A DNA stretch of 47,470 nt. Source: a virus. The stretch is taken from IMG/VR virus record IMGVR_UViG_3300045988_055181, positions 1 to 47,470 of that record. The stretch is one strand, 5' to 3'. The position numbers were made by a program, and so were the translations under genes. Positions within the stretch are counted from its first letter, which is position 1. The number at the start of each line of letters is the position of its first letter. Positions 27,342-36,706 of this stretch are shown here, piece by piece. The notes under the pieces were generated by a model. That model did not search any database, was not told the DNA's origin, and saw only the letters and a program-made list of their open reading frames with translations.

Positions 27342-27452
27342 GTGTGTACTCCTTTCAGATTAGGCGTTTTAGGTGGTCGCCGTCACCGATCTGCCTGCAC
27401 TTTTAGGCTTGCAGGATAGCCAATTTCCGTAGTTTAATGCCGTTGCGGGCAT

Positions 27453-32332: not shown

Positions 32333-32403
32333 ATAACAGCACCTCCTAACGATAGCTATTATACGCCTCATATATATTTGTGTAAATATACACAATCCAC
32401 AAA

Positions 32404-32456
32404 TATACTTGCGCAAATATAGTTATTTTGCCCATTGCTATACTTGCGCAAATATA
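32404..32456. promoter_or_regulatory. two copies of the near-palindromic operator TATACTTGCGCAAATATA, 35 bp apart, in a divergent control region
   Basis: Copies at 32404-32421 and 32439-32456. A TGTGTA-AATA-TACACA palindrome lies just upstream. Confidence 0.6.
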
Positions 32457-32507
32457 TTATACTATAGTCACAGTAAAGGAAACGAACACCGAAAGGAAGT
32501 AATCAAT

Positions 32508-32738
32508 ATGACCGCAACCGAGAAAATCGCAATCTCCAAAATCGCAAGCCTGACCGATGATCAGCTTTTCGCTACATGGGAAAGCACCGAGAAGTACGAC
32601 AGAGAAAGCCACATGGCACAGGTAATGCTTCGCGGCTGGTGCATGGATGAGATCGAGAAGCGCTACCCGGAAGGCTTCGATGAATGGCTCGATTCTGACG
32701 CACTGGACAGCGAGCTTCGCCACTACTGCATTAAGTAA
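32508..32738 (+). CDS. hypothetical protein (76 aa)
   Basis: GAAAGGAAG RBS. First gene of the plus-strand island. Confidence 0.55.
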   Translation: MTATEKIAISKIASLTDDQLFATWESTEKYDRESHMAQVMLRGWCMDEIEKRYPEGFDEWLDSDALDSELRHYCIK

Positions 32739-32751
32739 GGAGGTAACTACA

Positions 32752-32862
32752 ATGGCCGCAACGCTCAACCCCATGTGCATCAACTGCGCCAAACTCAACA
32801 AAAGCTGTAACGGCACGACAAACCAAGTATGGACTGGCTGTATCTACAAGGAGGTAAAGTAA
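32752..32862 (+). CDS. 36-aa Cys-containing peptide
   Basis: AAGGAGG RBS. Sequence MAATLNPMCINCAKLNKSCNGTTNQVWTGCIYKEVK. Confidence 0.45.
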   Translation: MAATLNPMCINCAKLNKSCNGTTNQVWTGCIYKEVK

Positions 32863-32863
32863 A

Positions 32864-33058
32864 ATGATGAATTTCGAACTGACCCGCGGTGATAGCCTCT
32901 GTGTAACAATGGCGCTGACAACAGTTATCTGTAATCTGATCAGGGAGCAGGAAGACCCGAACACCACCGCCGATCGGCGGGAGGTAGTCGAGGAAAGCAT
33001 TGAGATGTACAAGCGGATACGCGCAGAAATCAGAGATCAGCGCAACGCACAAGAATAA
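32864..33058 (+). CDS. hypothetical protein (64 aa)
   Basis: AAGGAGG RBS. Confidence 0.55.
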   Translation: MMNFELTRGDSLCVTMALTTVICNLIREQEDPNTTADRREVVEESIEMYKRIRAEIRDQRNAQE

Positions 33059-33120
33059 CGGTTCTCGCGGGTTCACCCTTAAAGCCCGCACCCATAAATT
33101 TTAATTTGGAGGTACACACC

Positions 33121-33321
33121 ATGACTTACACCTACGAGATCGAGCGCCGCATCTGCACTGAGTTCTGCAACAAGTACTCATTCGCCCACTGTGAAAGCTG
33201 TCCGCTTTACAAGGCGTGCTGTGGATTTGAGAACGACATGAGCAAGACCACCGAGGAGAACGAAAGACGCTTTGAAGCCGGACTTGTAAACGCCCTCGCC
33301 GCTTACGACGCACAGCACTAG
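33121..33321 (+). CDS. Cys-rich small protein (66 aa)
   Basis: GGAGG RBS. Starts MTYTYEIERRICTEFCNKYSFAHCESCPLYKACCGF... Confidence 0.55.
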   Translation: MTYTYEIERRICTEFCNKYSFAHCESCPLYKACCGFENDMSKTTEENERRFEAGLVNALAAYDAQH

Positions 33322-33375
33322 CGGAACATATCAAAAATACTTTTACGCAAAAGTATTAACTTCCGCATAAAAGTA

Positions 33376-33404
33376 TTGACTTTCGTGTAAAAGTTTGCTA
33401 TAAT
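33376..33404 (+). promoter_or_regulatory. consensus sigma70 promoter TTGACT-17-TATAAT overlapped by AAAAGTATT repeats
   Basis: -35 at 33376-33381, -10 at 33399-33404. The palindrome AATACTTTT-ACGC-AAAAGTATT and two further AAAAGT(A/T)TT copies lie just upstream or overlapping. Confidence 0.65.
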
Positions 33405-33448
33405 AAAAATACAGAAAGAGATAAGACACAAAGCAGGAGGTAATTATT

Positions 33449-34138
33449 ATGTTAGCAACTCTCACTCTGTTCTGCGAGCCAGCCGAACGCCTCGACGAAG
33501 CAAAATCCACGCCGAACTATCCCGTCAAAAAGTATGACGCTTTTGTCGTTACCGAGGACAGCGTGGAATCCGACCGTCAGGTCGGTAGACTTGGTTGGAG
33601 CACCTACGGCGGCTCTATTGCCTTGCGGCGTGTCCTTATCGAGATACCGGAAGGTGTGCATTACGGCCGCTGCAATTTCGGCGGCTATCATAGTACGGGG
33701 ATGGAATACTACGGCGACTACGACGCGCACGACGGCAATCTTTGCTTAGTGCCTGTCACTGTCGGCAAGCCTGCCAGCCTGCGCGAGCACGGCGAAAACC
33801 TCGAAGCCGCATTCGATGCCGCGATTGATTCCGGTATCTTTTTCTCCATCCCGAACGAGGACGGCGGCCGACACACGGAACGCGCCCACATTTACAAGGT
33901 CGGCGAGGTCATGGATAAGGCACACGGCGATAAATGGCCAAAAGGCAAAATCTCCGTTGCAGATATCCGCGAAGCCGCAGGCTTAACCCAGCAGCAGCTT
34001 GCAGACGTGACCGGCATCCAGCTGCAAACCTTGCAGCAGATCGAAGCCGGTAAGATCACCGCCTACGAGGCAGGCGAGAATTACCGCGAGAAGATCGCCG
34101 AAGCGCTGAACTTTTACGACTATCAGAGTATTTTCTAA
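33449..34138 (+). CDS. two-domain protein: unknown N-terminal domain plus C-terminal XRE-type HTH (229 aa)
   Basis: C-terminal ISVADIREAAGLTQQQLADVTGIQLQTLQQIEAGK. Confidence 0.65.
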   Translation: MLATLTLFCEPAERLDEAKSTPNYPVKKYDAFVVTEDSVESDRQVGRLGWSTYGGSIALRRVLIEIPEGVHYGRCNFGGYHSTGMEYYGDYDAHDGNLCLVPVTVGKPASLREHGENLEAAFDAAIDSGIFFSIPNEDGGRHTERAHIYKVGEVMDKAHGDKWPKGKISVADIREAAGLTQQQLADVTGIQLQTLQQIEAGKITAYEAGENYREKIAEALNFYDYQSIF

Positions 34139-34159
34139 TCTCGAAAGGAGCACCCAACA

Positions 34160-34609
34160 ATGAATAAAGTAATCCGCGGCAAGCGCTACAACACAGAGAC
34201 CGCGAAGCTGGTTGGCACGTGGGAAGCCAACGAGCCGGAAAACTCAGACTTCTGGGAAAAGGAAGAACTCTACCAGAAGCGAAGCGGCGAATTCTTCCTG
34301 ATCGGTCAAGGCGGCGCACAAACGCAGTATGCACGTTTTTCTATGAGCGGCGAAAGTAAGCCGGGCATTGAACTCCGTCCGATCGAGCCGGAAGAAGCGT
34401 CTGACTGGGCCGAGGAACATCTCACGGCCGATGAATACGAAGCACTTTTCGGGCCGGTTGCCGAGGATGGCAGCCGCGGCCGCATTACTCTAACACTGCT
34501 CAACTCCACCATTGACACCGTGCGCCGCGAAGCGCAGCGTCGAAAAATGAATTTTAACGAGTACCTCGAGAAGCTGATCGCTCAGCAGATGAAGGAGGAC
34601 CAGAAATGA
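34160..34609 (+). CDS. hypothetical protein with a C-terminal RHH-like segment (149 aa)
   Basis: Starts MNKVIRGKRYNTETAKLVG...GEFFLIGQGGAQTQYA... C-terminal ITLTLLNSTIDTVRREAQRRKMNFNEYLEKLI. Confidence 0.6.
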   Translation: MNKVIRGKRYNTETAKLVGTWEANEPENSDFWEKEELYQKRSGEFFLIGQGGAQTQYARFSMSGESKPGIELRPIEPEEASDWAEEHLTADEYEALFGPVAEDGSRGRITLTLLNSTIDTVRREAQRRKMNFNEYLEKLIAQQMKEDQK

Positions 34610-34887
34610 AAGTTCAGTTATTCTCCACGCCTTCCGCGTATCCCGCGTATTATCTCCGCTTGAAAGATGGCGTTTACGATCGAGTAAACGCATTCCCCGC
34701 TCCTTGTACCGCACCGGGAACGCCGATCGACCAGCGCTATGCACGCGCAATCGACAAAGACAGATATTTTCCGGTTATCACCTCATCGCATGACGGATAT
34801 ATCTTTTTCGGTCTGCCGGAAGGTGCCGAAGTTTACACCGCAGCCGAGGTGGCCGCCATTGACCGCCCGAACCGCGTCAAAGAATAA
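34606..34887 (+). CDS. hypothetical protein (93 aa)
   Basis: ATGA coupling. Last gene of the plus-strand island. Confidence 0.55.
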   Translation: MKVQLFSTPSAYPAYYLRLKDGVYDRVNAFPAPCTAPGTPIDQRYARAIDKDRYFPVITSSHDGYIFFGLPEGAEVYTAAEVAAIDRPNRVKE

Positions 34888-34904
34888 AATACCTTGTTTC
34901 TCTA

Positions 34905-34950
34905 TGACAAACCCCGCTCACCAAAGCCATAAGGTGAGCGGGGTTTGTCA
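34905..34950. terminator. 18-bp-stem hairpin TGACAAACCCCGCTCACC/GGTGAGCGGGGTTTGTCA
   Basis: Direct reading. Closes the plus-strand island and borders the ORF-free locus. Confidence 0.65.
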
Positions 34951-36033
34951 TTATACGACTGTTTCGGTTTTGCAGGACTCGCACCCGCTTTCAGCCACTA
35001 TGCAAACCGGTATACCTCCACAGGGAGGTATGAACGCTATCGTCGCGTCTGTACGTCGGGCTTTTACCGAGGCTTGCGCCGCTGTCCAGAACGGTTTGTA
35101 TGAAATCCAGAGAGGTAATAACCTCACTTTCGCAAGTTTACTTGTGTTCCGTCCTGTGTGATTAGGTATGCCTATCGCAAGAGATAAACAGGCTGGTGCT
35201 CTTTCGCGGCGTGTACTTAGCCGCCCGAAAGCGCCATATCGGCTTTGTTCGCGCCGGTTGTTTTGCTCTCGGCTCACTAAGTCCGTGTGAGTGCTTATCC
35301 GGGCAGCACTCGCCCTCTCATTATGGGCTGTTCGGCGTTGCTCTCCGTCGTGTCGCAGTTGCTATCGGTCTGTAATCCGGCTGATTCCCTCGTAAGGTTA
35401 CAGCGGGGAGCGACCCCGGTTGCGGCGTGCCTGCAAGCACCCGCTGAACTCTGCAAAGCCGTTGCAGCAGCTTCACAGGCGTTCGGAAACAGATTGTCCG
35501 TCTTTCCGGACCGCCAGAATATTATCGTCCTCGTTGGAGGCGTTGCGCTCCCTCTGCCTCATGCAGCTTCGGGAGCAGATCACCTTGCACGTTGTCCACC
35601 ATGCAAGGCTTGCCAAAAGTCCGCTACGTTACCCGTCCGGCTTCATGCAGCCATCCGGGCATGTTTGCGGTGTCTGTTGCCCGCAGACACCGCACTCCAT
35701 TCTCAATTTTTTAGCGTGAATGTTATTACTCCGTCACCCTCATGCAGGCTTCGGAGCATATCGGCGTGCCGCGCAAAAGACACGCCGAAAGAATAGAAAG
35801 GATAATCAATGCCTTCGTTCCGCGAAAGGCGTCTTGCTCCTCTGCCCTCATGCAGACTTTGGAGCAGGTCAGCGGCAGGTCTCCCCACCGCTTTAAGTAG
35901 GTATTTGGGGTTAAACAGAAAGGCTTGTCACCCGTCAGCCCTCACGCAGGCTTCCGGGCGTGTACCCGCCTTTCGGCGGGCTGAAAGCGGAGGAACGAAA
36001 CTCCGTGATTCCGCCCTTTAGGGCTTTTATCAC
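34951..36033 (-). ncRNA. candidate large structured ncRNA locus (strand tentative)
   Basis: About 1.1 kb without a credible ORF in an otherwise gap-free genome. At least 20 local hairpins, five covarying motif copies, and an extended -10 promoter at its minus-strand 5' edge. Confidence 0.45.
35537..35960 (-). repeat. five dispersed-tandem copies of a 30-32-nt hairpin motif with an apical UGCRUGAR loop
   Basis: Copies at 35537-35566, 35630-35661, 35728-35757, 35835-35866 and 35929-35960. Details are in the findings. Confidence 0.75.
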
Positions 36034-36039
36034 GATATC

Positions 36040-36069
36040 ATTATACCACCATTCTTTGTAGTATTGTGT
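36040..36069 (-). promoter_or_regulatory. extended -10 promoter TGgTATAAT (minus strand)
   Basis: The + strand reads ATTATACCA at 36040-36048. The -35 is weak. It lies just after the stop of the 36088 gene. Confidence 0.45.
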
Positions 36070-36087
36070 AGCCCGTTTTCCACAATG

Positions 36088-36360
36088 TTATGCACAGCCT
36101 GTGCGTATATGTTCTACTGCCCGTAATGCCCGTGCGTGCATCTTTCCGCGAACGTGCACTTCGTTGTAATTCATTCTCTCGGCGGTCTCTCTCCACGTTC
36201 TACCGTTCACGTAATGTTCGATCAGCAGCGCCCGCAGCGCCGCATCCTGTACCTTAGCCGTTGTGCTGATAATCTCGGCCTTAATCAGTGCAAGCCGTTC
36301 CTGCTCTCGCTGTATCTTCTCGGACAGGGCAAGATACGCATCCGCCTTGTTTGCGGTCAC
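36088..36360 (-). CDS. sigma-70 region-4-like phage transcriptional regulator (90 aa)
   Basis: Sequence ALLIEHYVNGRTWRETAERMNYNEVHVRGKMHARALRAVE. GTG start. Confidence 0.5.
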   Translation of the reverse strand: MTANKADAYLALSEKIQREQERLALIKAEIISTTAKVQDAALRALLIEHYVNGRTWRETAERMNYNEVHVRGKMHARALRAVEHIRTGCA

Positions 36361-36490
36361 GTCACCGCCGCCGCCCGGCGTGTCCTTGATCGTCGCTGTT
36401 GCGCTTGTCGCCCGCGTCCACGCCCTTACTCGTGCTTCTTCCAGTGCAGAGATTGATTTTTCAAGGTCAATCCCTCGTCTGAGCCATTCT

Positions 36491-36706
36491 TTAGTCGTCG
36501 TGCGCCACTACCTCCTCCGTACCGTGTTGTGTATATCGCCTACGACGGCTTATTCTCGCCGCCTTGCGGACGCAACCTACACCCGGTTCACATCCGCGCG
36601 ATTTCCCCGTGTCGATCAAATAATGACGCGCCCATAGCTTAGGGCCTTGGCTTGTACCCAGTACCCGCCAGTATGCGCACCCAGCGCATTCGCTTTTCTT
36701 TTTCAT
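36491..36706 (-). CDS. Cys-rich small protein (71 aa)
   Basis: Starts MKKKSECAGCAYWRVLG...HYLIDTGKSRGCEPGVGC. Confidence 0.55.
   Translation of the reverse strand: MKKKSECAGCAYWRVLGTSQGPKLWARHYLIDTGKSRGCEPGVGCVRKAARISRRRRYTQHGTEEVVAHDD

Follow-up and report, generated by a model that had tools for sequence, protein, structure and literature searches.

The viral DNA analysed here is IMG/VR record IMGVR_UViG_3300045988_055181, taken over its full 47,470 nt (positions 1–47,470) and called the window below. At the early/late gene boundary of a siphovirus-like prophage, its minus strand reads, in order, early genes (methyltransferase, RusA and HNH endonucleases), a small regulator gene, a structured RNA, a block of plus-strand genes and the late operon. 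The RNA begins with an array of five copies of one hairpin. As judged from sequence comparison and predicted structure, this array is the 5′ half of a discrete, large, structured non-coding RNA of about 1,130 nt (34905–36036, minus strand, from the presumed start to the terminator); the initial annotation had described the array and missed the rest.

The hairpin array and its selection for structure

A structure-aware scan of the window recovers five copies of the hairpin on the minus strand and none on the plus strand, in agreement with the initial annotation. The 9-mer CTGCRTGAR likewise occurs five times in the 47.5 kb, on the minus strand only, between 35558 and 35949. A covariance model built from related hairpins, with the window's own five in its training set, scores the copies at 44–47 bits (E about 1e-9), and the runner-up reaches 12 bits. 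The copies, in the order of the RNA, are A (35929–35960; loop UGCGUGAG; 45.8 bits), B (35835–35866; loop UGCAUGAG; 47.3 bits), C (35727–35758; loop UGCAUGAG; 46.7 bits), D (35630–35661; loop UGCAUGAA, with the inner stem swapped to GGC/GCC; 47.4 bits) and E (35546–35577; loop UGCAUGAG; 44.5 bits). Copies A–D each fold in isolation into the proposed two-stem shape, with z-scores of −3.1 to −4.8. Copy E, placed at first at 35566–35537, was 10 nt off and does not fold there; its corrected register is 35577–35546 (32 nt) or 35576–35547 (30 nt). The spacings also had to be revised, from 93, 98, 107 and 94 nt to loop-to-loop distances of 94, 108, 97 and 84 nt. Among themselves, the window copies are 65–78% identical and do not abut.

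Each conserved hairpin consists of a 6-bp outer stem, a small purine-rich internal loop, an inner stem of 3–5 bp and a hexaloop. The apical loop had been described as UGCRUGAR. Its sequence is indeed conserved, but its size is not eight, since positions 1 and 8 form a Y-R pair, which is U-G in most copies, U-A in copy D of the window and C-G in the third of the three sequence subtypes described below. The remaining hexaloop, GCRYGA, is closed by this covarying pair and, below it, by an invariant C-G pair, and it is present in 51 of 51 variants. The internal loop was characterized as purine-rich and 3 × 3; the purine bias is found in most copies, but the size is 2 × 2 or 3 × 3 within the window and is not universal, and in one subtype 2 paralogue the loop is reduced to a bulge. 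Likenesses to an anticodon loop, a K-turn, the hammerhead core, the sarcin–ricin loop and type I-C CRISPR repeats were considered and set aside, as the loop size or the flanking motifs do not fit.

The presence of a different strong hairpin in each interval was confirmed, and this second hairpin sits 3–5 nt upstream of the conserved one. The variable hairpins precede copy A at 35964–35981 (GAAA loop, 7 bp), copy B at 35871–35892 (9 bp), copy C at 35761–35788 (10 bp) and copy E at 35582–35609 (10 bp), all minus strand and 100% paired; the one before copy D (35666–35694, minus strand) is a perfect 11-nt inverted repeat and a helix of the RNAalifold model described below. The intervals are not the variable spacers for which they had been taken, because they are conserved at orthologous positions in related phages.

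To assess the stems we used 46 distinct hairpin variants from related phages, aligned without gaps, and tested ten pairs. Standard pairs occupy 95% of the cells in these pairs, compared with 79% in shuffles and 32–53% when the 3′ partner is slid. Changes on both sides are seen in six of the ten pairs, and the observed covariation score is reached by none of 500 shuffles. All members belong to one narrow phage lineage, so sequence counts here exceed the number of independent events. Covarying outer stems include CGCCCG/CGGGUG, UGCUCC/GGAGCA, UGCCCA/UGGGUA and UGCUCG/CGAGCA, and covarying inner stems include GCC/GGC, GGC/GCC, AC/GU and GCGUC/GGCGC. The stems thus drift and covary, and the loop is nearly invariant. 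Within the window, the compensatory stem changes and the five G-U pairs that exist only in the minus sense are as the initial annotation described them. Among the 46 variants G-U accounts for about one fifth of the paired cells, and the other strand would have A-C mismatches at these positions. Regarding the region as a whole, the minimum free energy of 35180–36040 is −369 kcal/mol for the minus strand (z = −8.3) and −341 kcal/mol for the plus strand (z = −3.7), a difference of 28 kcal/mol in favour of the minus strand. From these comparisons we conclude that the hairpins are minus-sense RNA structures under selection for structure.

Extent of the RNA, relatives and genomic setting

Related phages share nucleotide homology from the upstream gene across the array and as far as position 34904, where it ends. 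The predicted transcript measures 0.8–1.16 kb in relatives. We infer its transcription from the elements at its two ends. At 36040–36086 (minus strand), a putative promoter can be read from the sequence, with an extended −10 element TGgTATAAT (36048–36040; TATAAT at 36045–36040) about 45 nt past the stop codon of the upstream gene; the RNA would start about 50 nt past that stop. No −35 element matching the consensus is found at this promoter. In its place stands a conserved inverted repeat, ATTGTG (36086–36081) and CACAAT (36068–36063), the right half of which occupies the −35 position. A simple σ70 consensus scan missed the site because it has no −35 match. The promoter blocks TGTGGAWAA, CACAATA, TATAAT or TATACT, and ATCGTG recur in this order in subtypes 2 and 3. 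At the other end, the terminator hairpin (34906–34949, minus strand) has 16 bp followed by UUUGU and faces the 3′ end of a convergent plus-strand gene; subtype 2 has a different terminator of the canonical intrinsic type.

For 31 subtype-1 sequences, RNAalifold gives 54 helices with 334 pairs, a predicted secondary structure in which the long-range helices are tentative. Each helix is 82–100% paired, and all except one 3-bp helix are at least 91% paired. Four parts are common to the three subtypes: a 5′-terminal hairpin, the array with its preceding stable hairpins, a central domain and a tRNA-like minihelix. The 5′-terminal hairpin (36004–36034, minus strand) has an outer 6-bp stem that is 100% paired and an inner 4-bp stem that is 99% paired in subtype 1; its counterpart in subtype 2 has equal architecture and a different sequence. 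The central domain (35345–35525, minus strand) can be aligned in all three subtypes, and 7 of its 34 predicted pairs show compensatory changes. It includes a second type of hairpin, CCG-GAAAGA-CGG (35496–35511, minus strand; consensus YCCG-GAAAGA-CGGR), with compensatory changes in three of five pairs. Subtype 1 has a single copy of this hairpin, which is duplicated in subtype 2.

Near the 3′ end, the tRNA-like minihelix (34965–35009, minus strand) is formed by an acceptor-like helix of 6–7 bp, 35009–35003 with 34971–34965, that encloses a linker of 10–15 nt (13–15 nt in the window) and a T-arm. The T-arm (34988–34972) has 5 bp and a 7-nt loop, UGCGAGU, and the 3′ strand of the acceptor-like helix abuts the T-stem. 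The helix sequences are unrelated across the three subtypes (CGGUUU/AAACCG, GCAGCC/GGCUGC and CGGCCCU/AGGGCCG) and the T-stem covaries too, while the T-loop-like consensus UGCRAKY is shared. RNase P, RNase Z or the CCA-adding enzyme might act on the minihelix, or it could be a module for end protection. ARAGORN finds no tRNA or transfer-messenger RNA (tmRNA) in the window. At gathering level, the RNA region has no match in Rfam 15; at a permissive E ≤ 10 there is only noise for the RNA of the window, of locus L021 (subtype 2) and of locus L122 (mosaic), and the GOLLD, ROOL, HEARO, OLE, abiF, CRISPR-DR and tRNA/tmRNA models do not match it. The only Rfam family in the window lies elsewhere, a GP20-b RNA motif in the head-gene region (27361–27421, minus strand; 57.6 bits, E = 2.8e-10).

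Relatives were collected by several routes. A two-loop DNA pattern scan of viral contigs yielded about 26 homologous loci once many chance hits had been removed by a structural filter, and a three-loop scan returned the same RNA and unrelated pentapeptide-repeat genes of 15-nt periodicity. With the upstream protein as query, 61 further viral contigs were found, all 61 with the array about 142 nt past the stop codon. A genome scan gave two loci, in metagenome-assembled genomes labelled Subdoligranulum variabile (Oscillospiraceae) and Coprococcus eutactus. In a core-motif scan of metagenomes 46 of 47 matches were true, and every record that names a source names the human gut; the core-motif scans of metagenomes and viral contigs yielded the same subtypes and no distant relatives. 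The third subtype was found through a regulator homologue of 62–65% identity. In total, well over 100 viral and metagenomic contigs from the human gut carry one of the three sequence subtypes. A blastn search of the RNA region against 50,697 deposited phage genomes returned nothing, the loop sequence appears in no paper in a relevant context, and the motif is absent from the accessible part of the supplements of a survey of structured RNAs in the human microbiome (PMC8040213). The RNA is apparently undescribed so far. Its carriers are temperate siphovirus-like phages of human-gut Oscillospiraceae; the portal protein shares just about 40% identity with its counterparts in Clostridioides difficile siphophages.

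The array behaves as a set of modules. Different phages have three, four or five copies, and this number varies without parallel change in the 3′ two-thirds of the RNA. For example, locus L121 is without modules A and C, and its remaining RNA is nearly identical to that of the window. Locus L149 has a chimeric A/B hairpin and locus L143 a deletion that begins inside the loop of copy D; therefore, the copies recombine. In 260 kb of related loci the hairpin matches only in the arrays. The loop consensus is constant across subtypes in which the regulators are 43–65% identical and the late genes about 93% identical in nucleotide sequence.

In many loci, a sixth hairpin-like element with the same loop (for example UCCGCCGCAGG-UGCGUGAG-CCGGGCGGG) is found beyond the RNA terminator, on the RNA-sense strand (L013:4766, L086:5446, L034:3446, L121:~5345 and L122:~2135); it is absent from the window. 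It adjoins the terminator of a convergent gene, and the deletion in L143 joins the copy D loop to it. The covariance model gives it no score at E ≤ 0.01.

In every locus examined, the gene directly upstream of the RNA is the small regulator (36088–36501, minus strand; about 137 aa), which has a long helical hairpin and a C-terminal helix–turn–helix (HTH) domain resembling σ70 region 4. It falls in PHROG 36, annotated 'transcriptional regulator', and has weak Pfam matches to Phage_antitermQ (3.7e-4) and Sigma70_r4_2, and weak sigma-factor matches in NCBIfam. The AlphaFold model (mean confidence score, pLDDT, 78.7) shows two long helices and a small helical domain. Comparison with the PDB, by sequence profile and by Foldseek with this model, gave nothing significant, the best matches being extracytoplasmic function (ECF) sigma factors. 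Only 20 close homologues are present in 5.8 billion proteins, and they are confined to this phage group. The start codon position (36499–36501) reads ACG in the window and in all subtype-1 loci, and ATG (MTAKEW...) in subtypes 2 and 3. A strong ribosome-binding site, GGAGGAGG, lies upstream of the ACG, and the next in-frame ATG, GTG or TTG lies 47 codons downstream. Translation would begin at ACG or at some other non-canonical codon, or else the protein is shortened at its N-terminus.

On the other side of the RNA, the late operon opens at about 32331 with a small gene, after which come a gene resembling phosphoadenosine phosphosulfate (PAPS) reductase, the large terminase and the portal. In nearly all loci it lies 1.1–3.8 kb beyond the RNA terminator and has its own consensus σ70 promoter with a palindromic operator; only in L021 is the first late gene 107 nt past the terminator, without a promoter of its own. 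The late-operon promoter of the window (32335–32420, minus strand) is TTTACA-17-TATAAT within the palindrome TATATTTGTG...CACAAATATA and is conserved in both subtypes. TATCGT directly after the −10 element is common to this promoter and the RNA promoter. The intervening plus-strand block (32409–34887) differs between phages and encodes an HTH protein (33449–34138) and several small open reading frames (ORFs); homology breaks off at 34904 and at about 33124. The interval 32409–34904 looks like a cargo or moron hotspot. PADLOC detected no defence system among the neighbouring cargo proteins, with only weak HTH-domain matches on a 229-aa protein. A 68-bp segment (33057–33124) is 90–99% identical in many loci, with flanks that are not conserved; within it lie a GC-rich hairpin and the beginning of a small Cys-rich ORF on the plus strand (33121–33321), together with the ribosome-binding site of this ORF.

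A possible docking platform and its rivals

Because the loop is invariant, the copy number ranges from three to five and the rest of the RNA is unchanged with copy number, we read the hairpins as equivalent, independent recognition sites through which one RNA may bind several copies of one partner. This is the interpretation that we favour, while stopping short of calling it probable. The array would display several equal recognition loops, so that a single RNA molecule holds several partner copies as a scaffold or sponge. A protein is the most likely partner, since loop bases 4 and 5 vary by transitions only, no covarying RNA partner is seen and the copy number is free; it could come from the host or be one of the conserved late proteins of the phage. 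The variable hairpins may serve as folding insulators. The adjacent regulator probably turns on transcription of the RNA, which would then be abundant in lytic growth; control of the promoter by this protein is suggested because the conserved inverted repeat stands where a −35 element is missing. The 3′ domain and the tRNA-like minihelix might provide a second activity, or a function in processing or stabilizing the end.

Several points weigh against this interpretation. No recognizable RNA-binding domain is found among the about 35 ORFs flanking the RNA, each scanned against Pfam, PHROGs, NCBIfam or PADLOC and none against all four. An invariant loop would fit an RNA receptor equally well. 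Transcription is deduced only from promoter-like and terminator-like sequence, shared descent within the one narrow lineage inflates some of the co-occurrence and covariation counts, and a simple sponge would leave the large conserved 3′ domain unaccounted for. A more elaborate proposal gives that domain a role: the RNA might represent a new class of giant phage scaffold RNA, in which an array of variable copy number gathers several copies of one host or phage protein, the 3′ domain is catalytic or architectural and the end mimics tRNA. We hold this version to be conceivable but somewhat unlikely.

The loops could instead serve the RNA itself. In an RNA-only ornate particle of the GOLLD/ROOL kind, folding and perhaps self-multimerizing without protein, the loops and the tandem G-A internal loops would make tertiary or quaternary contacts, as kissing loops or through loop–receptor and A-minor interactions. 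Size, phage origin, extreme predicted structure and the variable 5′/conserved 3′ layout resemble GOLLD, the loop core CRYG is self-complementary as CAUG and CGCG (and as CGUG with wobble pairs), and the failure to find an RNA-binding protein among the flanking ORFs scanned is in line with this proposal. However, the loops of two hairpins in subtypes 2 and 3 are of the CACG form; these lack self-complementarity, which weakens the idea of kissing loops, and no CGUG loop occurs in those subtypes. When mutual information on the subtype-1 alignment was used to look for tertiary partners of the loop bases, it returned linkage-type signals only and nothing convincingly Watson–Crick; in particular, no subtype-1 columns show convincing covariation of this type with the variable loop positions of copy D. 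Arrays of three to five copies without compensating change are also hard to square with a single precise fold or a symmetric cage, and the Rfam models of GOLLD and ROOL give no match even at E ≤ 10. We regard an RNA-only particle as unlikely.

A third explanation places the function in cis. The hairpins would be part of a late leader and, like nut/boxB or put elements, would load an antitermination factor or act directly on RNA polymerase, which would read through the terminator at 34906–34949 into the downstream genes. In phage λ the order is Q, PR′, 6S RNA and tR′, and the RNA here directly follows a regulator with a weak Phage_antitermQ match, an arrangement comparable to that of λ Q. The put RNA of HK022 has a two-stem layout, which the two-hairpin module appears to resemble. 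The promoterless late gene 107 nt past the terminator in L021 would suit such a leader, as would the same-loop hairpin-like element that follows the RNA in many loci and is oriented like it. In every other informative locus, however, the late operon is 1.1–3.8 kb away with its own TTTACA-17-TATAAT promoter and palindromic operator, and in the loci read (the window, L121 and L299) the intervening variable cargo is on the opposite strand. No boxA-like single-stranded motif recurs beside the hairpins, and the fold comparison of the regulator gives non-significant ECF-sigma matches and nothing specific to Q. Moreover, hairpins and a terminator would suffice for a leader, which leaves over a conserved 3′ domain of 600 nt and the tRNA-like minihelix. 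In sum, we consider a late leader improbable.

A fourth explanation is an array of processing signals, in which Cas6-like or ToxI-type cleavage at the conserved hairpins would free the hairpins between them as single small RNAs or RNA antitoxins. The layout is repeat–spacer-like with a period of 84–108 nt, and Type III and AbiF antitoxin RNAs are likewise repeated hairpins before a terminator (PMC12373285). However, the repeats are just 65–78% identical and do not abut, the 'spacers' are orthologously conserved, and an antisense search against the rest of the phage gave chance 12–13-mers only. The DNA after the terminator is variable, and convergent where read, and thus offers no same-strand candidate toxin or nuclease gene; neither CRISPR-DR nor abiF matches in Rfam, and PADLOC detects no system among the neighbouring proteins. 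The initial annotation had already denied that this is a CRISPR array, as borne out by the diverged repeats, the conserved intervals, the missing CRISPR-DR match and the lack of any cas-like annotation among neighbouring ORFs. Its denial of a ToxI-like array also stands, because tandem abutting repeats of 34–50 nt are absent, the period is 84–108 nt and no same-strand toxin gene follows in the loci read (the window, L121 and L299). Processing signals are a very improbable explanation.

Lastly, the proposal that the region is not RNA at all, being a degenerate coding repeat or DNA repeats such as iterons, a replication origin or operators, is scarcely credible, since stop-free plus-strand stretches of up to 171 codons and an L-x-x-S-L-H-E-G frame compatible with the 108-nt B–C spacing are outweighed by arms that vary and covary around a fixed asymmetric loop with G-U tolerated on one strand only. 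Double-stranded DNA operators, by comparison, keep their half-site sequence. In line with the objections that the initial annotation itself had raised to a coding origin, the array is not the remnant of a repeat protein: homologues share no conserved reading frame, and both codon-position and indel tests are negative. In the longest plus-strand ORF, codon positions 1, 2 and 3 have nearly equal numbers of variable sites (39/42/43), indels of 1, 2, 7, 10, 25, 26 and 28 nt are common, and the longest ORFs vary between 34 and 174 codons in the RNA sense and between 79 and 228 codons in the antisense. Recoding of one stop codon opens no conserved gene-sized frame. Three ORFs overlap the RNA in the window, at 35287–35796 (plus strand, 169 aa), 34739–35161 (plus strand, 140 aa) and 34951–35277 (minus strand, 108 aa). 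They are almost certainly spurious, because they have no family hits, their length and frame are not conserved and one crosses both the homology breakpoint and the terminator. In L299, the gene caller put a 597-aa gene across the 3′ half of the RNA.

Large structured RNAs of bacteria and phages without homology to known families are rare, and OLE, GOLLD, ROOL, HEARO and raiA have each opened a line of research. The present RNA is abundant in human-gut viromes and stands at a defined regulatory position beside a putative late regulator. In contrast to GOLLD and ROOL, it has an obvious experimental handle, a repeated hairpin with an invariant hexaloop that can serve as bait or be mutated copy by copy, and its tRNA-like 3′ module hints at a connection with machinery that processes or binds tRNA. 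Identification of a partner could reveal the purpose of at least one giant phage RNA. If the scaffold interpretation is true, the phage makes a kilobase RNA in lytic growth to sequester or organize a protein; this would be the first large RNA of the sponge or assembly-platform type described in bacteriophage, and would give a functional handle on ornate phage RNAs.

Comparison with known systems

We compared the RNA with the known systems that share its features. With the tRNA-like domain of tmRNA, MALAT1 mascRNA and YrlA it shares an acceptor-like helix on a T-arm, and its 7-nt loop UGCRAKY fits the T-loop pattern. The tRNA-like modules of these RNAs recruit tRNA-processing or tRNA-binding enzymes. 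In contrast to them, the module here has no anticodon or D arm and no CCA right after the helix, and ARAGORN does not recognize it.

The λ nut (boxA–boxB) and HK022 put sites are, like the array, promoter-proximal hairpins with conserved loops, located by a regulator gene and before a terminator. They differ in number, with one per operon arm compared with three to five copies here. In addition, boxA is lacking here, the loop is a hexaloop and not a GNRA-like pentaloop, and a separate promoter, kilobases away, usually serves the late operon. Regarding processed arrays, a terminator also comes after the repeated hairpin motifs of type III toxin–antitoxin RNAs and of the abiF-motif RNA RCd22 (PMC12373285). 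ToxI, CptI, abiF-motif RNA and CRISPR arrays share with the present RNA the location in phages or prophages and the repeated hairpins before a terminator; however, the repeats here diverge, 50–75 nt of conserved structured RNA lie between them and no toxin or cas gene follows.

The logic of the array appears most like that of the sponges of the Csr/Rsm type (CsrB and RsmY/Z), by analogy. Shared features are the promoter- and terminator-like ends of its own, the many same-loop hairpins, their variable number and their drifting stems. Here, however, the loop is GCRYGA and not GGA, the RNA is phage-encoded, and it has an additional large conserved domain and a tRNA-like module.

Of the known kinds, the large ornate phage RNAs GOLLD and ROOL come closest. 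Both are encoded by phages, assemble into cages through kissing loops and A-minor contacts and occur near tRNAs; in GOLLD, the 3′ region is conserved and the 5′ region variable, and the RNA rises during lysis (PMC12286853). The present RNA is like this kind in being phage-encoded, longer than 500 nt and non-coding, with extensive conserved secondary structure. It is similarly very large, densely structured and free of ORFs, and it has some tRNA-like association. Despite this, it has no detectable homology to them in sequence or structure (Rfam, E ≤ 10), it is without nearby tRNA genes, having only the internal tRNA-like minihelix, and its copy-variable array of three to five hairpins with near-identical loops has not been described for them. 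Since membership in CRISPR arrays, type III toxin–antitoxin systems and nut sites fails in each case on at least one defining feature, we assign the RNA to a new family of large, ornate-type phage RNA with an unusual modular and, we propose, multivalent 5′ half.

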